In this document: positions 34,827-64,000 of the stretch, in pieces | Layout: each line of letters begins with the position of its first letter | How positions within the stretch are numbered: the stretch's first letter is position 1 | Position numbers and translations under genes: made by a program | IMG/VR virus record: IMGVR_UViG_3300016667_000333 | Location: 1 to 64,000 of that record | Reading direction: 5' to 3' (one strand) | Source of the DNA: a virus | Length of the DNA stretch: 64,000 nt | Notes under the pieces: generated by a model | Seen by the model: the letters and a program-made list of their open reading frames with translations, nothing else | Told to the model about the DNA's origin: nothing | The model's database searches: none

Positions 34827-37800
34827 ATGGCAAAAGGCTGCGTATATATACCCAAGACCGGCAAGGATGCTGGCAAGGTGTTCGGATCTAAGGAGACACT
34901 TGCTGCGCATATGAACTACACCCCGGCGATGGCCGACGTTATGGCTAAGTATCAGCAGACAGGCGGTGCCATGGACGTGGGCAGTGTGACCAAGTGGCTC
35001 ACAGACAATGGGTATTTGAAGACTGAGGGTAAGGCCGCAAAGGCTGGAAAGCCTCAGACCGGCAAGACCAGCGAGAATGATGGCCAGAGACTTAGTAGCT
35101 TTAAGAAGGGCGACGTGGTCTACCGTAACTATAACGGCAGGTATGAGGAGTACACCATTGCGGACACTAGCAAGGATGTTTGGAAGCTGGTGTCACCCGA
35201 CGGAAGGGAAAGCACCTGGAACGCGGCCAATAACGGAGGTTTCATACTGAAGGAGACCAAGGCTGAGACCAAGCCAACAACAGCAGCTAAAGAAACTACT
35301 CTCGTTGATAAATGGGAAAAAGCAGGACTAGAAATTCTAAACAAGTATGGTGTAGAGAGGTTTACTGATTGGCTAAGTAATCAGCCATTGCTTAGTGAAG
35401 ATGGATTTTATGGAATTAGAGACATTGCCAACAAGTATGGAATCAAGTTTCCTCAAACTAAAAGAGAGTTTGATGCAGAGGTAAAGAAAAATGGAGGCAT
35501 TGACAATTACATGGGTTCAATGGCCGACACCTTCATGTCAAAGATGAAGCAGGCTCCGGTTGAAAAGAAACCAACTGTCAAGAAAGAGTTCCCAAAGGCC
35601 CCTGTCACAGACGCGGTAAAGGCAGCGCTCAAGAGCGTGGACAATACCACGGCGGCCATCATGAACCTGGCAAAGGTTCTCCCGACGGTATACGAGTCTA
35701 TTACCAAGCAGGTCAAGATAACCCTTGGCAAGCCTGTCTCACAGCAGGTGGCCGAGGCGTACCACAACGCGGTAGAGAACGGCGTGGAGCCAGAACTTGT
35801 AGCGGCGGTAGAGAACGCTGTAGCGTTACAGGAGCAGATGAAGTCCAAGCCAAGCCTTGCAGACAACATTGAGACCGCAGAGACCCTGGAAGTAGCGGGT
35901 GTTCCTAACGGAGTTCGGGTGAGTAACAAGTCGTCTCTGGCTGACCTGGAGCGCAAGCATGCAGGCAACGCCACTAAGAAGGCGACCATTGCCATGGCCC
36001 GTGCGGCAGCCAAGACTCTCAAGTCTGTGTTCCCGATGATGGACATCCACCTGCACGAGAACACTGCGGACTACAACAACGCCATGGCGAACCTAGGCGC
36101 ACAGCAGAACAGCGCGGGTAACTTTACATACAGCACCTCTTCCGATGGGACGGTGGTTGGTCGTATCGACATCAACCTAAACAGGGCCACCCCACGCACC
36201 GTTGTACACGAGGTGACACACGCCGTGTTGCTGAAGACCTTTGGCGACAGTTCGCCTGCCTTCCTTGAGTTCCGCAACAACCTCGAGAAGATAATATCAA
36301 AGTCCGGAAACAAGAGACTTTCAGACTTTGCTGACAAGTACAAAGACATTGCGGACGACATAGGCCAGGCTGAGGAATACCTTGCCGAGCTTGGCGGTAT
36401 ACTGTCCGACAAGGAAACTCCATTAGATTATGGACTGGTACGCCGCATTGCTGAGATGATCAACAAGGTCGTGTCTACCATAACCTTTGGTCGTCTCAAG
36501 CCATTTGAGGACTTGCAGAACCAGAAGGACACGCTTGAGTTCTTCAATACGATTGCACAAAGCATCAAGGCAGGTACCTCGCTTGAAAACCTTATGGTTG
36601 CCGAGCCATATAGCTCGTCAATAGCTTTTGAAGTTGATCCGGATGGAACCTTTACGAAGTCAAAAATCAAGACCAAAGCAGCAATAGGTGATTACATCAT
36701 ACCAAAGGGCAAGAAGGATTTGGCAATTGCTACCGTGCCCACAAAATCGCTTGCAGAAGTTATTAAGGAATACAACGGTCGTGTAGTAATTATTACTAGC
36801 GACGCTACTGGATACGGAGTGGACAGCAAAGGCCGTGAGATTTATGGTGGACCTGGGTTTGCAAACAACAAGAAAAATGTTGATGATAAAATAGGATTTG
36901 CAAGTTTGAATGTTGGAACGGTAAAATCCGTTTACACTTCTGCTGACAAGGCTTACGGCAAAGGCAAGACCCTTGTTTTAATTATGGTTCAACCACCGCA
37001 CACTACCATAAACAACTCGTATGGAACCCAATATTTCATGGAATCGCTTATTGACATTTCAAAAAATGCAAATTGGAATGAAATCAAGGCGGACATAGAG
37101 AGATTATTGAAAGAAAGCAAGGGTATAAGAAATAAATATCCAGAGAAGACAAGAGCTAGTGACGTTGATCGATTAGTGAAATTCTTTAAGAAAATTACTC
37201 CTAACTCAAATCCGGACGCTCTTACTAAAGAGTATCTTGACATAACAGGATTCCAGTCAAGATCTGCAATAGCTAAAACTTTTATACTTGATCAACCCAA
37301 CACCCGTATAAATGTGAAAAGCGCAAAAACCAAAAAAGCGTTTTTGGATAATGGGGTTACGATTTATGATTTTTTGAAGGAGTATGGTGATGACACCATA
37401 TTGACTGATGAAATGATGCGTAATAACGAGGGTGGATATGTTGTTGCTGGTTTCGAAATAGACGTTACAAGCAAGGCAGAAAGAGAGGCTTTAGTCGAGG
37501 AAATACAAGGAAAAGGAATTGAACACCCTTTGTTTAATGCTAAACTTCCAGGCACAAATCACTTCGTGCTTGATGGTTTGTATGACGTGAATGAGAATTT
37601 TGCTCAGTACGCAAAACCAAACATGGAAATTACTCTTCCCGACGAAGAGTTGAATCAAATCGTAAGAGAACAGTATCCAAGCGTTGATGACTATAAGGCT
37701 GAGGTTCGTAAAGAAGCCGATAAAATAAATAAAGACAAAACCCTAAGCGAAGAGGAAAAGCAAAAAGCGATTGAGGCATTGAAGATATACAAGTCATTGC

Positions 37801-39617
37801 CTGCTGCTAAAAAGATATCGCTTAAAGAAAACTATCTGTCAAAAATAGAAGGTGCTTTAGTTCCTGTTCAAGCCGACGTGGCAACAAGTGTAGCTGGAGG
37901 TAAAGGATTTGTTCCAATAAAAGGTGCTGCTAAAAAATTAAAAGAAGCCGAATATAAAAAATCCAGAGAACTTCCACCATCAAAAATTAAATCGAAGGCT
38001 CAGATATTCGGCGAGACAGGAGCTGCGAGGATGGAGAATGCTGAAAAGACACTCAACAACCTACAGGTGGCAAGGGACATGGAGGCCAAGTTTGAGAAAG
38101 AGGAGCGCACAATGACGTTCGTCGGCCCATCAAAGGCTACTGAAAACGCTCAGAAGATTAGGCTGGCCACTGGATGGGAGAGGGGTGCAGACGGTATGTG
38201 GAGATTGGAGATCCCAGACGGTCAGCTCAAGCCGATTGACCTTGACAACATGCTCAAGTATAACGATGAGATACCCTTTGCGTACCTTGACGAGATATAT
38301 GACTCCAAAGAGCTTTATGATGCATACCCGCTATCAAGGGATATACAAGTGATGTTTGTTGAGTCTGATGATTTCCGAGGATCTTACAACCACCAAGAAA
38401 AACGGATACAGCTTTCTATCAACCATTTTGACGAGCCGATAGACATGTTGTCTACCCTGCTGCATGAGGTTCAGCACTACATACAGTACGTAGAGGGTTT
38501 TGCCACAGGCGCAAACACGTCAACAATTGTAGACCAAATCAAGTTTGATTTATATCTAATAGATAAGCAGATAAAGGCGGTTAGGGAAAAAAGGGAAGAG
38601 CCTGGTGCGGATATTAGTGAGCTGCAAAAGGAACAGGAAACCCTTGAGTTTAAAAGCAGAAAGCTCAACCAGCAGGTGTCGAACCTCCTCAAGGATGCGC
38701 AAACCAAGATGAACGTCGAACTCAAAGGGCCTGATGAACAAAAGGCCTTTGTAGACATGGCACTAAAGGACAGTGATATAAGGAGGAGCCTGTACAAGAG
38801 GGCGGCTGGAGAGGTAGAGGCTAGGAACGTACAAAAGCGTATGGGCCTTAGTGAAGAGGAGCGCATGAATAAACTCCTGTCTTCAACAGAAGATGTCCTC
38901 AGAGGTGACCAATTGGTTTTGGGGGCCGCATTAAAAGGAGAGACACCAACGCTCAAGACTAAGGCTCAGATTGTTACGGTTGAACCTATTGATTTTGAAA
39001 ACGAATCAGAAAACATTGACGTATACGAGGCGTTTGAACAAGCAAGTAAAATAGCAAAAGATAATGGCGTAAACATTTTAAGGGGCAAGGAATTAAAAAG
39101 CGTTGCTTTAGATGATAACGGTAATGTTGTAGGTGGTTTATGGACTGAGATTAGTGGGGATGAGTTTTCATTTGATGTAGCGGTTGATAAATCAATGCAG
39201 GGCAAGGGCGTAGGTGAAAAACTAGTTAATGAAGCCATTTCGGAATTTAACGCTCAGAATTTTGAAGATCAATTAAAGTACAAGGTGGACGTCACTAATC
39301 CTGTAATGGAAAAGTTGTTGTCAAAGTATGGTTTTGAGGTTACAGAAAGGATTGACGGTCACACGATGATGGAACATCCTACCAACAATCCTAAACTAAT
39401 TCTCAAGACCAAGGCCCAGATGGTCGACAACAACGCCAAGCAGGTAGCCGACCTTTACGCCGAGATGCGTGAGGGTGGCGGATGGGCTGAGCGCCAAAAA
39501 ATAAACGCTATTTTGGACCAAGACCCCAAACTATCGTACATTTACAACAACTTTAAGGCTATCACTCAGATGCTTGAGGATGCCAAACTTTTAACGAAAT
39601 CCGGTAACTGTCCATGA
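34827..39617 (+). CDS. Polyvalent protein: two zincin (HExxH) modules, unknown central module, GNAT acetyltransferase module
   Basis: 1596 aa. First zincin motif VVHEVTHAVL at aa 461-465 (36207..36221). Second zincin motif LLHEVQHYIQYVEG at aa 1213-1217 (38463..38477), with downstream AGEVEARNVQKR. GNAT acetyl-CoA motif MQGKGVGEKL at aa 1457-1466 (39195..39224). The motif [IL]K[TS]KA[QA][IM] is repeated four times. Confidence 0.65.
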   Translation: MAKGCVYIPKTGKDAGKVFGSKETLAAHMNYTPAMADVMAKYQQTGGAMDVGSVTKWLTDNGYLKTEGKAAKAGKPQTGKTSENDGQRLSSFKKGDVVYRNYNGRYEEYTIADTSKDVWKLVSPDGRESTWNAANNGGFILKETKAETKPTTAAKETTLVDKWEKAGLEILNKYGVERFTDWLSNQPLLSEDGFYGIRDIANKYGIKFPQTKREFDAEVKKNGGIDNYMGSMADTFMSKMKQAPVEKKPTVKKEFPKAPVTDAVKAALKSVDNTTAAIMNLAKVLPTVYESITKQVKITLGKPVSQQVAEAYHNAVENGVEPELVAAVENAVALQEQMKSKPSLADNIETAETLEVAGVPNGVRVSNKSSLADLERKHAGNATKKATIAMARAAAKTLKSVFPMMDIHLHENTADYNNAMANLGAQQNSAGNFTYSTSSDGTVVGRIDINLNRATPRTVVHEVTHAVLLKTFGDSSPAFLEFRNNLEKIISKSGNKRLSDFADKYKDIADDIGQAEEYLAELGGILSDKETPLDYGLVRRIAEMINKVVSTITFGRLKPFEDLQNQKDTLEFFNTIAQSIKAGTSLENLMVAEPYSSSIAFEVDPDGTFTKSKIKTKAAIGDYIIPKGKKDLAIATVPTKSLAEVIKEYNGRVVIITSDATGYGVDSKGREIYGGPGFANNKKNVDDKIGFASLNVGTVKSVYTSADKAYGKGKTLVLIMVQPPHTTINNSYGTQYFMESLIDISKNANWNEIKADIERLLKESKGIRNKYPEKTRASDVDRLVKFFKKITPNSNPDALTKEYLDITGFQSRSAIAKTFILDQPNTRINVKSAKTKKAFLDNGVTIYDFLKEYGDDTILTDEMMRNNEGGYVVAGFEIDVTSKAEREALVEEIQGKGIEHPLFNAKLPGTNHFVLDGLYDVNENFAQYAKPNMEITLPDEELNQIVREQYPSVDDYKAEVRKEADKINKDKTLSEEEKQKAIEALKIYKSLPAAKKISLKENYLSKIEGALVPVQADVATSVAGGKGFVPIKGAAKKLKEAEYKKSRELPPSKIKSKAQIFGETGAARMENAEKTLNNLQVARDMEAKFEKEERTMTFVGPSKATENAQKIRLATGWERGADGMWRLEIPDGQLKPIDLDNMLKYNDEIPFAYLDEIYDSKELYDAYPLSRDIQVMFVESDDFRGSYNHQEKRIQLSINHFDEPIDMLSTLLHEVQHYIQYVEGFATGANTSTIVDQIKFDLYLIDKQIKAVREKREEPGADISELQKEQETLEFKSRKLNQQVSNLLKDAQTKMNVELKGPDEQKAFVDMALKDSDIRRSLYKRAAGEVEARNVQKRMGLSEEERMNKLLSSTEDVLRGDQLVLGAALKGETPTLKTKAQIVTVEPIDFENESENIDVYEAFEQASKIAKDNGVNILRGKELKSVALDDNGNVVGGLWTEISGDEFSFDVAVDKSMQGKGVGEKLVNEAISEFNAQNFEDQLKYKVDVTNPVMEKLLSKYGFEVTERIDGHTMMEHPTNNPKLILKTKAQMVDNNAKQVADLYAEMREGGGWAERQKINAILDQDPKLSYIYNNFKAITQMLEDAKLLTKSGNCP

Positions 39618-59440: not shown

Positions 59441-59457
59441 GTTGTCGTTGTTTAAAT

Positions 59458-59492
59458 GCGGGGGCAATATACATGCCGCACGTTGCCCCCGC
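59458..59492 (-). other. Perfect 10-bp hairpin between early genes
   Basis: GCGGGGGCAA / TTGCCCCCGC with 15-nt loop; weak U-tract (ATTTAAA) on the minus strand. Confidence 0.45.
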
Positions 59493-59505
59493 TTGTTAAT
59501 GGGTG

Positions 59506-61283: not shown

Positions 61284-61586
61284 TTATTGTTTCCAAAATA
61301 GATTGCTGTTCATGTTGACGGCTACCTTGCCGGCATTGGTACACTCGTACCATACGCCTTCATGCTTCTCGTACCATTCACCCTCGTCTTCGTAGTCCCA
61401 TTCGGTGTAGCAGTACGCACCCTCGTCGTATGCCTCGTCGAGGTCAGCGTAGCCCTGCTCTAGGGCGAAGCGCTCAGCGTCTTCCTTGTTGATGAAATAC
61501 ATGAGGTTCTCTTCGAACAGGTAGCCCTCGTTCATGCCCTCGTTTGTTGCGCTGCATATGCGAGCGAATTTCTCAGTTGTTTCCAT
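61284..61586 (-). CDS. Highly acidic small protein
   Basis: 100 aa from ATG 61586; D/E/Y/W-rich (YTEWDYEDEGEWYEKHEG). Confidence 0.45.
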   Translation of the reverse strand: METTEKFARICSATNEGMNEGYLFEENLMYFINKEDAERFALEQGYADLDEAYDEGAYCYTEWDYEDEGEWYEKHEGVWYECTNAGKVAVNMNSNLFWKQ

Positions 61587-61833
61587 TGTGCTGTCGTGTT
61601 GATTGTTGGTATTGATATGAATTGATGAGCGTTTGTAGCGGGGCAACTTCGACCCCTATGTCTTCCCCGTTCTCTAGGGCTGCGTTGATGTCATCGTAGC
61701 TTTCGATACGGGCTTCCGTGCCGTCATCGTATAGGCGGTAGATTGTAAGTGCGCCCGATGACCATAGTTCCTTGGCTGAGTCGGTGACGATGAGCCACAC
61801 GAAGCCGTCTGCTGTGATTTTGATGTTGTCCAT
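61573..61833 (-). CDS. Hypothetical protein
   Basis: 86-aa ORF; CA-rich leader directly after element E1. Confidence 0.45.
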   Translation of the reverse strand: MDNIKITADGFVWLIVTDSAKELWSSGALTIYRLYDDGTEARIESYDDINAALENGEDIGVEVAPLQTLINSYQYQQSTRQHNGNN

Positions 61834-61855
61834 GTTGTTGTGTTGTATTGATTAG

Positions 61856-61899
61856 AGACAGGGGCGGGAGTCGAACCCGCCCTAGCACCATGCCTGCCT
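61856..61899 (-). ncRNA. tRNA-minihelix-like structured element E1
   Basis: Minus-sense AGGCAGG-CATGGTGCTAG-GGCGGG-TTCGACT-CCCGCC-CCTGTCT, then CTAA. The outer stem is 7 bp (one G-U), the inner stem 6 bp, and the loop is T-loop-like. It lies 8 nt after the stop of 61908..62831. Confidence 0.5.
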
Positions 61900-61907
61900 G
61901 CGTGCCG

Positions 61908-62831
61908 TTAGGCTACGATTTTCGCTAGGATGTCGAAGGCCTGCGCGTCCATTGCGCCTGCCTGTCCTGTCATCTTAGCCTCGATACGGCCGTTCTCGCG
62001 GTTAGGAGCGGAGGCCTTGTGGGTGGTGTAGTGTGTAACCCCACTCATCAGTCCCCACAGCGAGCCGCCCTTGTATGAGGTCTCGCGGCGTATGCTGTCG
62101 AGCAGTTCGCTTGCAATATTGAACTTGCGTGCGCTGTGGTCGGCGCGTATCGACTTCTCGGTCTTGGTGATGTCGACGTCGGTCAACTGCTGCACCACGC
62201 TGCGCACAATCTCGGGCGTCATCGGGGCGTTGGCCATCTTGAAGAAGGTGTCGTAGAGGCTCTCGTCGGCCTTCACTATGCCGAGAATTTGCTGCTTAGC
62301 TGCCTCGATACGTTCGCGCATGCTAGAGGTGTGTCGCACGCGGCTCATGGCCTTGTCACGGGCTGCGCGGTAGAAGGTGTTCTGACAGCTAATGGTGTAG
62401 CCTAGCGACCCGAAGCAAACGCTGCTGCTGCCGTCGAATGAGTTGAGGGCGGTCACGTACTTTTCTACGCGGTCGTTGTTGTCACCGATACCGGTAACGC
62501 TGCCCGCTGACAATTGCAGGTATACCTTCTTGCCGCCGTTCAGAGCGCCGCCCTTGTGTATGCGGTAGCCAAACTCGCCTGCAATGGCCTCGCATAGCTC
62601 AGCGAGCTCTTCATTCTGAAAGACCGCGTACTGCTCAGACATTACGCCTAGGATAGCGCCGTTGTCGGCCCGTTGGTTGGCCCATGCGCTGTCGACAGGC
62701 GTGCCGTCGGGTGTGTAGAGTTGTACCTTGTTTACGTGCCAATCGAGGCCTGTAGCTTGGAGGGTTTCGATTGTCTTAGCACCTGTGGTGATGTTTGACA
62801 GCATGCTGTCGAGGTTGAAATTGTTGTTCAT
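61908..62831 (-). CDS. DUF932 / TIGR03299-type phage-plasmid protein
   Basis: 307 aa; GLDWHVNKVQLY, QRADNGAILGVMSEQYAVFQNEE, GGKKVYLQL, ALNSFDGSSSVCFGSLGYTISCQNTF and RVRHTS follow the DUF932 family pattern. Confidence 0.7.
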   Translation of the reverse strand: MNNNFNLDSMLSNITTGAKTIETLQATGLDWHVNKVQLYTPDGTPVDSAWANQRADNGAILGVMSEQYAVFQNEELAELCEAIAGEFGYRIHKGGALNGGKKVYLQLSAGSVTGIGDNNDRVEKYVTALNSFDGSSSVCFGSLGYTISCQNTFYRAARDKAMSRVRHTSSMRERIEAAKQQILGIVKADESLYDTFFKMANAPMTPEIVRSVVQQLTDVDITKTEKSIRADHSARKFNIASELLDSIRRETSYKGGSLWGLMSGVTHYTTHKASAPNRENGRIEAKMTGQAGAMDAQAFDILAKIVA

Positions 62832-62862
62832 AATGTGTTGAAATAAATTGTTATAAAATTAG

Positions 62863-62906
62863 AGACAGGGAGGGGAAACGAGCCCCTCCGAGCACCATGC
62901 CTGTCT
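62863..62906 (-). ncRNA. tRNA-minihelix-like structured element E2
   Basis: Minus-sense AGACAGG-CATGGTGCTCG-GAGGGG-CTCGTTT-CCCCTC-CCTGTCT, then CTAA. It has the same 44-nt architecture as E1, with two compensated stem changes. It starts 1 nt after the stop of 62908..63231. Confidence 0.5.
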
Positions 62907-62907
62907 A

Positions 62908-63231
62908 TTATAGCCCCTTCATGAGTAAGCGGTAGCCTTCCTGCCCTTCGTCTTGCTTACGTGTAGAAGCGGCCTCCATTGCCCTTCTTTCTAGCGTGCG
63001 CCACATATGTGCTAGCTGCCCATTGTCCTGTTCAGTCTCAGCGCCCCATGTCATTACATACGAGCCCCTGTTGCCCACTATTACAATCATTTGCAGGGGC
63101 AAATCACCTTGCCACTCGGCCAACTTCACGTTGTAGCTTATTTCCAAGCCGTTCGCGAAGTAGATTGTCTTGTTTTTGAAGTCTGAAACAGGCATTTTTG
63201 CTAGCTGTTGGATGAACTCTTGTGTTGTCAT
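62908..63231 (-). CDS. Hypothetical protein, first ORF of the early block
   Basis: 107 aa from ATG 63231 (CA-rich leader); the longer track ORF to 63345 would read through element E3. Confidence 0.45.
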   Translation of the reverse strand: MTTQEFIQQLAKMPVSDFKNKTIYFANGLEISYNVKLAEWQGDLPLQMIVIVGNRGSYVMTWGAETEQDNGQLAHMWRTLERRAMEAASTRKQDEGQEGYRLLMKGL

Positions 63232-63254
63232 GTTGTGTTGTGTATTAAGTTTAG

Positions 63255-63313
63255 AACAACGCGGGGACTCGAACCCCGTACACACCTTGCGGAGTGTAGC
63301 GCCTGCCGTTGCT
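63255..63313 (-). ncRNA. tRNA-like three-way-junction element E3
   Basis: Minus-sense AGCAACG-GCAGGCGC-[TACACTCC GCAA GGTGTGTA]-[CGGGG TTCGAGT CCCCG]-CGTTGTT, then CTAA. It has a T-arm with a canonical T-loop, a GNRA-capped hairpin and a 7-bp acceptor-like stem. There is no D-arm or 7-nt anticodon loop. Confidence 0.5.
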
Positions 63314-63721
63314 ATAGTTGCCATTCTACCCACATGCACCTTCACATGCGGTAGAAATCGGTTGCAGTAAACAAAGAACTAGTGTTGTTAACGAGCCGCG
63401 ACTCGAGTCCTATTGACCCTAGACACCCTTGCACTCAGTAGGCTTGCGCTTACCTTCTCAGTTAGTCTAGAGCGCGGATATGAGAACCACCACCCGCTTA
63501 ACCTCATTCCTGTTGTGGGTGCTTTTCACACCCCTCAAACGCTGTAGAACCATTGTCCCTGTTTGATGGCACAAAGATGGGGGTCGTTTGGTGGTGACAT
63601 GCCCGACATTAACATTTCAGCAACACTTTTTATGTCATAACACAATGTTTTTAAGCTAACTTGTTGAAACTCAGTGTACAAAAAAGTTAAGGGTTTATTT
63701 GGATATGGGGCTGTTATACCC

Positions 63722-63729
63722 TATATTTG
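63722..63729 (+). promoter_or_regulatory. Candidate -7 promoter box (TATATTTG) pointing rightwards
   Basis: Fits TAnnTTTG; followed by near-palindrome GGGGAA-a-TTCCCC (63729..63741); no convincing ORF downstream. Confidence 0.35.
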
Positions 63730-64000
63730 GGGAAATTCCCCACAACTTATTGGTTTTCATCGTGTTACATGGGCTCAGCGCCGGAATACCTCGCTGCCTC
63801 TATAGATCCACATAGAACACTAGGTAAGGGACACACAGCGCCAATAGGTACAGGAGCACATAAGACACTCGTGCACGCCCGCACATTAGGCCTCCAAACC
63901 TTGGGTTGCCCCTACCAAAAGAAACCCGCCCTCTGAACCCCGCGAAAACACACGGAAATTGCTTTAAATCGACTTTCTCGCCTGTGGTGGTATCTACATA

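Follow-up and report, generated by a model that had tools for sequence, protein, structure and literature searches.

A minimal tRNA-like element ahead of an early phage operon, probably a processing module that related phages exchange for hammerhead ribozymes or a true tRNA

The element designated here E3 is a real, non-chance member of a conserved family of stripped-down tRNA look-alikes located upstream of early phage genes. It lies on the minus strand of the window, i.e. the whole 64,000-nt stretch of viral DNA that was analysed, ahead of the first early ORF (ORF1). Two smaller members of the family, E2 and E1, precede the next two genes. The host of this phage is apparently a member of the Bacteroidota. 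On the basis of sequence comparisons, E3 is probably a minimal tRNA mimic whose role is played by the RNA: it would serve as a processing ('punctuation') module in the early transcript, cut by the host RNase P and/or RNase Z.

E3 corresponds to the minus strand of positions 63313..63255 and reads AGCAACG-GCAGGCGC-TACACTCC-GCAA-GGTGTGTA-CGGGG-TTCGAGT-CCCCG-CGTTGTT, followed by CTAA, ACTTAATACACAACACAAC and the ATG at 63231 (Table 1). The initial annotation had described a perfect T-arm, a GCAA (GNRA) hairpin with one T.T mismatch, a closing 7-bp acceptor-like stem with one G-U pair, and a CTAA plus CA-rich leader with the ATG about 20 nt downstream; all of these are present. The T loop fits the tRNA consensus U54 U55 C56 R57 A58 N59 Y60, with a G53-C61 closing pair, the 8 pairs of the hairpin are formed by TACACTCC and GGTGTGTA, the G-U among the 7 acceptor pairs is G2.U71, and the distance from acceptor to ATG is 23 nt. 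The 7-bp acceptor sits on the 5-bp T stem, and their 12-nt 3' strand is contiguous. The lack of a 7-nt anticodon loop was also correctly noted, the arm at this place being 8 pairs capped by the 4-nt GCAA loop. The statement that E3 has no D-arm needs correction, as the 8 nt GCAGGCGC fold as a vestigial D-like hairpin. The minimum-energy and centroid structures given by RNAfold are both the fold described here, at -23.4 kcal/mol. This energy by itself is only weakly unusual (z = -1.85), as 7 of 200 shuffled sequences fold equally well.

Table 1. Positions of E3, its parts and the neighbouring features of the early operon in the window.
Feature	Position	Strand	Basis or remark
Candidate -7 promoter element CATCTTTG	63572..63579	-	266 nt upstream of E3; predicted promoter
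Conserved, ORF-free, hairpin-rich leader	63314..63571	-	between promoter motif and E3; no Rfam match
E3 acceptor-like stem, 5' strand AGCAACG	63307..63313	-	pairs with 63261..63255; nearly invariant in 15 orthologues
E3 vestigial D-like hairpin GC-AGGC-GC, GG loop	63299..63306	-	RNAfold pairing; counterpart hairpins in relatives
E3 anticodon-arm substitute TACACTCC-GCAA-GGTGTGTA	63279..63298	-	8 pairs, one U.U mismatch, GNRA loop
E3 T-arm CGGGG-TTCGAGT-CCCCG	63262..63278	-	perfect stem; both-sided stem changes in relatives
E3 acceptor-like stem, 3' strand CGTTGTT	63255..63261	-	partner of 63307..63313
Discriminator-like C + UAA (replaces CCA)	63251..63254	-	CTAA 3' of nearly all family members; predicted RNase Z side
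G-free, CA-rich leader ACTTAATACACAACACAAC	63232..63250	-	sequence; runs to ATG 63231
ORF1, first early ORF, 107 aa, no family match	62908..63231	-	L007 orthologue has mini element upstream
E2, mini tRNA-like element AGACAGG-CATGGTGCTCG-GAGGGG-CTCGTTT-CCCCTC-CCTGTCT-CTAA	62859..62906	-	R1 68.3 bits; covariation on A1
Second early ORF, DUF932 protein, 307 aa	61908..62831	-	Pfam PF06067, 4.7e-30; phrog_1221
E1, mini tRNA-like element AGGCAGG-CATGGTGCTAG-GGCGGG-TTCGACT-CCCGCC-CCTGTCT-CTAA	61852..61899	-	R1 70.9 bits
ORF3, third early ORF, 86 aa	61573..61833	-	ORF call

Fifteen distinct orthologues of E3 are found in uncultured phage contigs. They retain its fold, the T stem changing in a compensatory manner and the middle hairpin being replaced. 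These E3-type sequences are 98.3% paired, three of the five T-stem pairs are changed on both sides, and the covariation score is 0.184 versus 0.073 for shuffled and at most 0.086 for slid controls. T stems altered on both sides in relatives are CTAGG/CCTAG, AAGGG/CCCTT, GGAGG/CCTCC and GGGGG/CCCCC. The middle arm is TGCAC-CTA-GTGCA in the related locus L003, is long and tipped with UGAG, CGAG or UGCG loops in L015, L016, L026, L027 and L041, and is missing in L005 and L047. From eight whole leaders, RNAalifold returned exactly the three helices of E3. Hardly any variation is seen in the acceptor or in the sequences on either side of it (ACAACTAT upstream, CTAAACTTAATACACAAC downstream), so its helix shows little covariation, and DNA-level or protein-specific constraints are possible there.

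E3, E2 and E1 are built alike. An acceptor stem encloses a very small D-like hairpin whose loop contains GG, then in some members a further arm, and the T-arm; C-UAA, a G-poor leader of about 21 nt and the ATG follow. Together with a weak covariance-model match, this shared architecture, tail and leader support the earlier proposal that E3 is the larger member of the E1/E2 family. The model, R1, was built from mini elements only, with E3 left out. On both strands of the whole window, E3 ranks third (19.2 bits, E=0.008), a weak match whose alignment is out of register because E3 has an extra arm, the hairpin loop GCAAGGUG being set against the mini-element linker GCAUGGUG. The three significant R1 matches all fall on the coding strand, in a 1.46-kb stretch at the operon's 5' end. 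The mini elements stack 13 bp and not 12, and their 22-sequence alignment (A1) is 98.3% paired with both-sided changes in 8 of the 13 pairs, for a covariation score of 0.642 versus 0.196 shuffled and at most 0.18 slid. The T loop of E2 departs from the consensus, without the U54-A58 pair. At the place of the D-like hairpin, relatives have stems of 2-5 bp with differing sequence and (A/U)GG-containing loops; the stems are unrelated across the family (TGCA/TGCA, CGTG/CACG, CGCA/TGCG, ATCA/TGAT, CACC/GGTG, CATGG/CCATG), and the GG-containing loop is common to all of it. A scanner for a T-arm plus adjacent acceptor gave 32 matches in the window and related loci, versus 0-5 per shuffle (20 shuffles).

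As the initial annotation stated, E3 is not a functional tRNA gene. ARAGORN reported 0 tRNA genes over the 64,000-nt window and the Rfam tRNA model had no match in 61500..64000 even at E<=10. No overlooked complete cloverleaf was thus called by either program, and ordinary tRNAs were rejected for E1-E3. An alanine identity was also considered for E1, but its G3.U70 pair is not conserved in relatives and is treated as a coincidence. The sole Rfam family touched by E3 is mascRNA-menRNA (RF01684), at 18.2 bits (24.8 bits in L002), below the gathering score of 42.5. A custom scanner and Rfam found no hammerhead ribozyme (CUGANGA...GAAA core, three helices, UH site) in the window. That E3 is a decaying tRNA pseudogene, or an attP-type host tRNA fragment, with no present function, appears extremely improbable. 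Its acceptor and T-arm are tRNA-like and come without an anticodon, and a true tRNA and insert-bearing tRNA-like elements are found nearby in relatives. However, the retention of the fold with compensatory changes in 15 distinct sequences led us to reject the degenerate tRNA put forward in the initial annotation, and three paralogues occupy equivalent positions. The host fragment was rejected as well: the 21-mer 3' half GGGTTCGAGTCCCCGCGTTGT has 0 exact matches in the 185,579 species genomes of the GTDB representatives (an exact-match test only), and no integrase was found in a PHROGs and Pfam scan of 34 ORFs, with about 6 kb of the genome outside the window. Moreover, both acceptor strands are present and E3 is thus not a 3' half.

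The Bacteroidota sigma-A -7 consensus is TAnnTTTG, and we take CATCTTTG at 63572..63579 to be a candidate for this element. In 13/13 loci with enough upstream sequence, a (T/C)AnnTTTG motif precedes the E3-type element by 198-409 nt and coincides with the 5' border of the conserved region. The position of this motif in the window supports the earlier suggestion that E3 is located in a 5' UTR, more precisely as the last part of a leader that is conserved and structured. The leader at 63314..63571 is possibly a separate early ncRNA. Known large RNAs (GOLLD, ROOL, RNase P RNA, tmRNA) were considered for it and discarded, as Rfam gave no match. E3 lies between this promoter-proximal leader and ORF1, and E2 and E1 each follow a stop codon and precede the next ATG. 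Contig ends were also considered as a stand-in for RNA ends. This was abandoned, since the contigs carrying ORF1 begin upstream of the promoter motif and so look like DNA assemblies.

In front of genes that are orthologous across relatives, four kinds of module occur: E3-type elements, mini elements, type I hammerheads and a true tRNA. For cluster 1, that of the window's ORF1, the element is of the E3 type in the window, L002 and L005 and a mini element in L007. For cluster 2, a hammerhead is found in L004 and L005, an E3-type element in L003, a mini element in L016 and another long variant in L194-196. Hammerheads and mini elements likewise alternate for cluster 4 (hammerhead in L005, mini in L007 and L011) and cluster 13 (a hammerhead in L041 and a mini element in L027), and the site syntenic to E1 is a hammerhead in L001, L005, L006 and L009. 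The hammerheads of the relatives have a full catalytic core and covarying stems II and III, and look functional from their sequences; they score 29-34 bits against Rfam RF03152, below the gathering cut-off of 56.3. The true tRNA is in L018, 9 nt upstream of an ORF (Rfam 47.5 bits). A search for other ribozyme classes at the module slots (Rfam at E<=1, seven related loci) returned only hammerheads and one tRNA. The layout is fixed, i.e. stop codon, module, C-UAA, leader and ATG, and the modules are always on the coding strand. After the predicted 3' cut, the leader would measure 16-23 nt for hammerheads (median 20), 5-36 nt for mini elements (median 22) and 8-40 nt for E3-type elements (median 21), and family-wide the leaders contain 2-6% G. 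A point against cleavage by RNase P is the AAACAGG subtype, where the preceding stop codon reads U(-1)A(+1)A(+2) and would be lost through such a cut. Given the hammerheads at the same positions in relatives, E3 most likely marks a host tRNA-processing cut site in the early transcript. Of the options listed in the initial annotation, a processing module is the best supported.

Alternatively, E3 could be an uncleaved structural element of a polycistronic mRNA, either stabilizing it against exonucleases, a role also raised in the initial annotation, or insulating neighbouring cistrons by uncoupling their folding and translation. The fold is compact and stable, and it sits exactly where one cistron's stop codon gives way to the next leader, which would suit such a role. 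We consider this role unlikely, as a plain hairpin would suffice for it, yet the T-loop consensus, the GG loop and the contiguous 12-13-nt 3' strand are conserved, and the modules found in its stead at these positions, namely self-cleaving ribozymes and a true tRNA, are both cut. Another view is that the released tRNA-like RNA is itself the product, a decoy or mimic that binds a host tRNA-binding factor (the enzyme that adds CCA, one that modifies T loops, or a defence protein directed at tRNAs), and that cleavage serves only to release it. The highly conserved acceptor and T-arm sequence of the E3 type, the position of E3 as the first RNA made after the leader, and the precedent of mascRNA for a freed tRNA-like RNA (a weak Rfam resemblance) speak for this view. 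It is nevertheless rather improbable: hammerheads devoid of tRNA likeness stand in at orthologous positions, each genome carries three to four divergent copies with differing acceptor and T-stem sequences, and there is no anticodon loop to draw anticodon nucleases.

Between relatives, homology stops at the ends of modules and the genes are arranged as a mosaic, which could indicate that E3 acts at the DNA level, as a repeated boundary for recombinational shuffling of early gene cassettes, or as a promoter or terminator. The conserved flanks would agree with this, as would Logan contig L181, which ends exactly at ...CTGTCTCTAA of E1; this end fits a strain-mosaic breakpoint rather than RNA cleavage. 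A terminator scan also flags the E3 T-arm with the tail CGTTGTTCTA, but this tail is not a U run, no convincing U tract is seen, and the 21 terminator-like sites of the region are no excess over shuffles (15.9 +/- 3.7). Between the modules and their ATGs, no (T/C)AnnTTTG was seen by eye. The compensatory changes preserve RNA helices, and at acceptor position 2-71 the E3 type has G2.U71 in 12/15 sequences and A-U in 3/15. Such G.U pairs would be C.A mismatches on the opposite strand and are therefore strand-specific, and the modules always lie on the coding strand. As the hammerhead swap also implies equivalence at the RNA level, a DNA-level role seems quite improbable, and the shuffling is more likely a side effect of repeated modules.

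We can propose the following scheme for E3 as a processing module, in which we infer the cleavage itself, its enzyme and its side from the sequences. The parts retained would be those recognized by tRNA-maturation endonucleases, i.e. a 7-bp acceptor stacked on a 5-bp T stem, a canonical T loop and a small D-like loop whose GG could form the elbow, the anticodon having been lost. The host RNA polymerase would initiate about 250 nt upstream of E3 and transcribe, in this order, the structured leader, E3, ORF1, E2, the DUF932 gene, E1 and ORF3. Host RNase P would then cut at the 5' border of each element, or RNase Z between the discriminator C and UAA, or both enzymes would act. The leader RNA and single cistrons would thereby be separated, and each downstream message would keep a short (about 21 nt), G-poor, unstructured leader. 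In related phages, a self-cleaving type I hammerhead would give an equal outcome at the same positions. Several observations speak against the scheme: the folding z-score of E3 is modest, its acceptor helix barely covaries, its R1 match is weak and out of register, the mini elements stack 13 bp, and the T loop of E2 lacks the U54-A58 pair. A broader and more tentative idea is that Bacteroidota phages may punctuate their early operons with a swappable RNA-cutting kit, comprising true tRNAs, two grades of minimal tRNA mimics dependent on host RNase P/RNase Z, and host-independent type I hammerheads, which recombination would swap at module borders; E3 would then release a structured RNA of about 250-400 nt, the first transcript on infection.

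Relatives were also sought more widely. The mini-element pattern has at least 120 matches in bacterial genomes, almost all without the helices and thus chance matches. Among the matches listed, only four are structured: one in a Parabacteroides MAG (L066), two in a Streptomyces sp. genome (L108) and one in L138, and they point to no particular host. Blastn of the region and of the consensus mini element against 50,697 GenBank phages gave generic T-arm matches only, and R1 had no match in bases 1-45,000 of Cellulophaga phage phi18:3. For the portal protein, the only matches, at about 22% identity, are podoviruses of Flavobacteriia (Pachyviridae and Flavobacterium 'elemo' phages), and the crAss-like label was therefore dropped. 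No description of such elements was found in Rfam 15 or in the searchable literature.

Several known systems are close to the E3 family. Non-tRNA transcripts with acceptor/T-arm-like helices that are matured by RNase P are exemplified by the P1/P7 C4 antisense RNA precursor and by E. coli polycistronic mRNAs. To our knowledge these are single cases, with neither a T-loop consensus nor a repeated modular family nor ribozyme alternates. In synthetic tRNA-gRNA arrays and ribozyme-flanked gRNAs, tRNAs and hammerheads are interchangeable as transcript-cutting modules; these phages appear to do likewise naturally, although the analogy is with engineered constructs only. E3 mimics a cloverleaf in the manner of MALAT1 mascRNA and MEN-beta (RF01684), with acceptor and T-arm well formed, the D region reduced and the anticodon arm replaced by a short substitute. 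RNase P and RNase Z excise mascRNA, a 3'-end device of vertebrate nuclear lncRNAs with no evolutionary link to E3, which, in contrast, sits 5' of an ORF. In plant mitochondria, non-decoding acceptor/T-arm structures between coding regions, the t-elements, set mRNA 5' and 3' ends via RNase P and RNase Z, a case of tRNA punctuation (PMC1920247). The E3 family resembles them as a non-decoding acceptor/T-arm mimic at a transcript or cistron boundary, and resembles animal mitochondria in that the stop codon abuts or overlaps the element. Unlike t-elements, the phage elements belong to a bacteriophage operon, are far smaller (44-59 nt), have a conserved GG mini-hairpin and are swapped with hammerheads, and their cleavage is a prediction. 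The theta (HDV-like) ribozymes beside gut-phage tRNAs trim a functional suppressor tRNA (PMC10879173). They likewise tie gut-phage ribozymes to tRNA-type processing, whereas in the present phages a protein gene is preceded by either the ribozyme or the tRNA-like element.

RAGATH-1/type I hammerheads (RF03152; PMC6765202) occupy the same slot before orthologous genes in sister phages. Unlike them, E3 has no hammerhead core and no self-cleavage by that mechanism, and it would need host enzymes. The role of self-cleaving ribozymes in bacteria and phages, hammerheads included, is still described as unknown, with polycistronic processing as a suggestion (PMC6765202). As a tRNA, a tRNA mimic and a hammerhead, whose only common property is to be cut, interchange before the same genes, this suggestion becomes a testable prediction. 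If these phages do carry a swappable cutting kit, this would be the first natural, genetic argument for phage hammerheads cutting polycistronic mRNAs before genes, and a mitochondrion-like 'tRNA punctuation' logic would operate in a bacteriophage. A natural tRNA mimic as small as 44-48 nt may also represent a minimal RNase P/Z substrate, or a processing part for synthetic biology in Bacteroidota. Finally, the data indicate an unclassified structured early RNA upstream of E3.

On the minus strand, E3, the tRNA-like element upstream of the first early ORF (ORF1, ATG 63231), reads AGCAACG GCAGGCGC TACACTCC GCAA GGTGTGTA CGGGG TTCGAGT CCCCG CGTTGTT, followed by CTAA and a G-free leader, ACTTAATACACAACACAAC, up to the ATG. 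The sequence and RNAfold confirm the T-arm, the GCAA hairpin with one mismatch and the 7-bp acceptor with one G.U pair described in the initial annotation. The T loop matches the tRNA consensus, its closing pair being G-C, and the middle hairpin, which ends in a GNRA loop, has 8 pairs and a single U.U mismatch. This fold is both the minimum-energy and the centroid structure (-23.4 kcal/mol); with a folding z of -1.85 and 7 of 200 shuffles equally good, the energy by itself would not carry the case. E3 is not a tRNA. The same annotation had held that it is not a functional tRNA gene, and the tRNA-finder check agrees: ARAGORN called no tRNA gene in the window, and Rfam gave no match at gathering thresholds and no tRNA match at E<=10. 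At E<=10, E3 matched only mascRNA-menRNA, with a score below threshold, and is no member of that family (RF01684); a tmRNA 3'-arm match fell on a second element of the window. The absence of a D-arm, also annotated, holds for a full arm, but a mini hairpin directly follows the acceptor.

Coordinates of the elements and neighbouring features in the window and in related contigs
Feature	Sequence	Position	Strand
E3	window	63313..63255	-
E2, mini element downstream of E3	window	62906..62859	-
E1, mini element downstream of E3	window	61899..61852	-
(T/C)AnnTTTG motif	window	63579..63572	-
Leader upstream of E3	window	63314-63571	-
Non-coding region	window	63580-64000	-
Intergenic hairpin	window	59453-59493	-
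1596-aa protein	window	34827-39617	+
Third mini subtype	L015	8402-8450	-
Third mini subtype	L018	8786-8831	
Third mini subtype	L027	5311-5356	-
Third mini subtype	L040	1285-1330	
Third mini subtype	L041	8490-8538	-
True tRNA	L018	4120-4193	
tRNA-like element	L002	about 449-575	
tRNA match	L002	203-308	

Such a mini hairpin lies directly 3' of the acceptor 5' strand in nearly every member of the family, here including related loci from IMG/VR and metagenomes (L numbers). The stems differ and the loop contains (A/U)GG: GC-AGGC-GC in E3, (G)CA-UGG-UG(C) in E1 and E2, CAUGG-UGG-CCAUG in L004, UGCA-AGG-UGCA in L015, CGUG-AGG-CACG in L027, CGCA-UGG-UGCG in L041, AUCA-AGG-UGAU in L194 and CACC-GACGG-GGUG in L005. 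We read it as a putative vestigial D arm, whose GG could pair with the T loop like G18-G19 of tRNA. The members form a series that starts with a true tRNA in L018 (Rfam 47.5 bits; ARAGORN Cys, anticodon ACA; ORF 9 nt downstream), continues with long and then short E3-type elements and ends with mini elements of 44 nt. In each, a discriminator-like base is followed by UAA, not CCA. Before the orthologue of the L018 ORF, L002 carries a tRNA-like element with the same acceptor as the L018 tRNA (AGTCAGG/CCTGACT), a ~45-nt insert and an ACTAA tail. A further L002 element matches tRNA at 38.8 bits, with a 43-nt insert and no ARAGORN call. These L018 and L002 elements lie in ~6 kb of genome beyond the window.

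E2 and E1, with a DUF932 gene between them, are laid out as acceptor (7) - CATGGTGCTNG - T stem (6) - 7-nt loop - T stem - acceptor - CTAA. A covariance model built on 22 mini elements, E3 left out, scored E1 at 70.9 and E2 at 68.3 bits. Its third best match on both strands of the whole window was E3 (19.2 bits, E=0.008, with a mis-registered alignment), the remaining matches having E>=0.58. The family membership of E3 proposed earlier is supported by the common layout, the match to the model being weak. All three elements fall inside 1.46 kb where a long series of small minus-strand ORFs begins, every one of these ORFs having a CA-rich leader. The E1 acceptor (AGGCAGG/CCTGTCT) includes G3.U70, the alanine identity pair, which is probably a coincidence since other members do not keep it. 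The T loop of the mini element before the DUF932 gene (E2; L002-L011, L169) is always deviant (CTCGTTT, CTCGCTT, TTCGCTT, CTCGATT); three of these four variants lack A58 and so the U54-A58 pair, and this may be a deliberately weaker module. A third mini subtype has the linker ACUUGGAGCAAGG or CUAUGGAGCAAGC and then a conserved hairpin, CTCTGCTCACAGCAGGCTCGTAATGCAAC, not CUAA. Mini elements that share the linker CAUGGUGCA but have other acceptors and tails occur in L017, L025 and L028 (99-105 kb), L022, L033 and L066. The motif is wider than this phage group, because the first five are unrelated, larger viral contigs and L066 is a Parabacteroides MAG.

Relatives, all uncultured contigs, were gathered via the DUF932 protein, IMG/VR DNA patterns, a metagenome pattern and two other early proteins; genome and metagenome scans used exact patterns. 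None of the GenBank isolate phages has such an element. Among 15 distinct E3-type sequences, acceptor and T stem are 98.3% paired, and three of five T-stem pairs are altered on both sides (CGGGG/CCCCG, CTAGG/CCTAG, AAGGG/CCCTT, GGAGG/CCTCC, GGGGG/CCCCC). Covariation is 0.184 versus 0.073 in shuffled and <=0.086 in slid-partner controls, which leave some phylogenetic signal. The acceptor contributes little because its sequence is almost invariant; in L194-L196, a long variant that is more distant, it is GCAGCA/TGCTGC. The middle arm is swapped freely: TGCAC-CTA-GTGCA in L003, long with UGAG, CGAG or UGCG tips in L015, L016, L026, L027 and L041, and absent in L005 and L047. From eight whole leader-plus-E3 stretches and no prior, RNAalifold returned the acceptor, middle hairpin, T-arm and little besides. 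The 22 distinct mini elements (from contigs of 7-70 kb, with further matches to the DNA pattern in contigs as large as 105 kb) are likewise 98.3% paired, with 8 of 13 pairs altered on both sides and covariation of 0.642 versus 0.196 shuffled and <=0.18 slid, controls that again leave some phylogenetic signal. A structure scanner gave 32 matches in real sequence and 0-5 in each of 20 shuffles. That E3 is a pseudogene or an attP, the latter named in the initial annotation as what could refute its reading, is extremely improbable and was rejected: its 3' half has no exact match in 185,579 species genomes, no integrase occurs among the ORFs scanned, the fold shows compensatory changes in 15 distinct sequences, and the window has three paralogues at equivalent positions.

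At the E1-syntenic site, L001, L005, L006 and L009 carry GGUAAA-CUGAYGA-stem II-GAA-stem III-C|UUUACC, a type I hammerhead that lacks no core nucleotide and whose stems II and III covary (7 distinct copies). The nearest Rfam family is RAGATH-1-hammerhead (29-34 bits, under the 56.3 cut-off). When the proteins encoded directly downstream of all modules were clustered, the same gene was found behind differing module types across phages.

Modules preceding the same early gene, by protein cluster
Cluster	E3-type	Mini	Hammerhead	Long variant	None
1 (window ORF1)	window, L002, L005	L007			
2	L003	L016	L004, L005	L194-196	L190, L193
4		L007, L011	L005		
6	L169	L002			
8	L011	L040			
13		L027	L041		

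The distance from predicted 3' cut to ATG is similar across types (hammerhead 16-23 nt, median 20; mini 5-36, median 22; E3-type 8-40, median 21), and the leaders after it contain 2-6% G. An uncleaved stabiliser or insulator is unlikely, as it leaves both the tRNA-specific features and the ribozyme swap unexplained. A functional small decoy RNA would agree with the sequence conservation of E3 but is at odds with replacement by hammerheads, and we regard it as quite unlikely. The modules also coincide with recombination junctions between gene cassettes. A cassette boundary, promoter or terminator acting at the DNA level would fit the break of related-phage homology at module 3' ends, the mosaic early gene order (L001-L011) and the 3' end of Logan contig L181 exactly at ...CTGTCTCTAA of E1 (CTAA; window 61852). 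The compensatory changes, the strand-specific G.U pairs and the constant module orientation make this very unlikely, and cassette shuffling is probably a by-product of the repeated modules.

We consider it fairly probable that E3 is a processing module, which host RNase P and/or RNase Z would treat as a pre-tRNA. Cutting is proposed because being cut is what the interchangeable modules have in common; fold, conservation, position and interchange are what is shown, and the cleavage is predicted. RNase P would cut on the 5' side of E3; instead or in addition, RNase Z would cut behind the discriminator C, at which point UAA stands in place of CCA, an anti-determinant for B. subtilis RNase Z. This would part the structured leader from the first message, and cuts at E2 and E1 would likewise part cistrons. 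The upstream stop codon adjoins or overlaps the module: in the AAACAGG subtype UAA is U(-1)A(+1)A(+2), and at hammerhead sites stem I starts with the G of TAG. Type I hammerhead cleavage keeps the ribozyme with the upstream fragment, and the RNA downstream of the cut begins 6 nt before the leader. An RNase Z cut would be the nearest equivalent: the upstream RNA would be capped at its 3' end by the mimic, and overlapping stop codons would stay whole. If RNase P cut an element of the AAACAGG subtype, the stop codon would be lost, as in mitochondria. The P1/P7 C4 RNA is a phage precedent for an RNase P substrate, although its layout is unlike that of E3. The same difference applies to theta ribozymes, a phage precedent for ribozyme-tRNA coupling (PMC10879173). 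The proposed role functionally resembles the t-elements of plant mitochondria and tRNA punctuation (PMC1920247), and also the mascRNA/MEN-beta device. A 2019 review left open what self-cleaving ribozymes do in bacteria and phages, polycistronic processing being a suggestion (PMC6765202), and we found no report in the literature of phage operons in which tRNA mimics and hammerheads alternate.

E3-type elements always come first, and the internal modules are mini elements and hammerheads. All 13 loci whose upstream sequence is long enough have a (T/C)AnnTTTG motif 198-409 nt before the E3-type element; it lies at the 5' border of a conserved stretch that is rich in hairpins and has no ORF. In the window this is CATCTTTG, a candidate promoter element that resembles the Bacteroidota sigma-A -7 element. 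Because of this motif, E3 is placed in the 5' UTR, ~250 nt into the predicted primary transcript. The ~250-nt leader between motif and E3 has equivalents of 200-400 nt before every E3-type element in relatives, with a conserved core, UAACUGA(R)AAGG...CUGA(R)UG(M)AAGGGUG, and a surrounding helix that covaries (CTAGAC/GTCTAG, GTAC/GTAC, CTCAC/GTGAG, GGC/GCC). It has no Rfam match and may be an unclassified early phage ncRNA with its 3' end set by E3. Upstream of the motif lies a non-coding region 76-84% conserved in relatives (e.g. GTAGATACCACC...GTCGATTTAAAGCAATTTCCG); candidate readings are a genome end, an origin and a divergent control region. A strong hairpin, GCGGGGGCAA-N-TTGCCCCCGC, lies between two early ORFs of this operon and is an intergenic structure of another kind.

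Terminase and portal match PHROG families. The portal is ~22% identical only to those of Flavobacterium, Cellulophaga, Tenacibaculum and Maribacter phages (86 records), for which reason a crAss-like identity was dropped. Related IMG/VR contigs are about 70 kb long. A Bacteroidota (Flavobacteriia-like) host is indicated by these features together with the promoter motif and a lack of Shine-Dalgarno sequences. The 1596-aa protein, which lies among several giant ORFs that match no family, is a large polyvalent protein with LPD23, SprT-like metallopeptidase and GNAT acetyltransferase domains.
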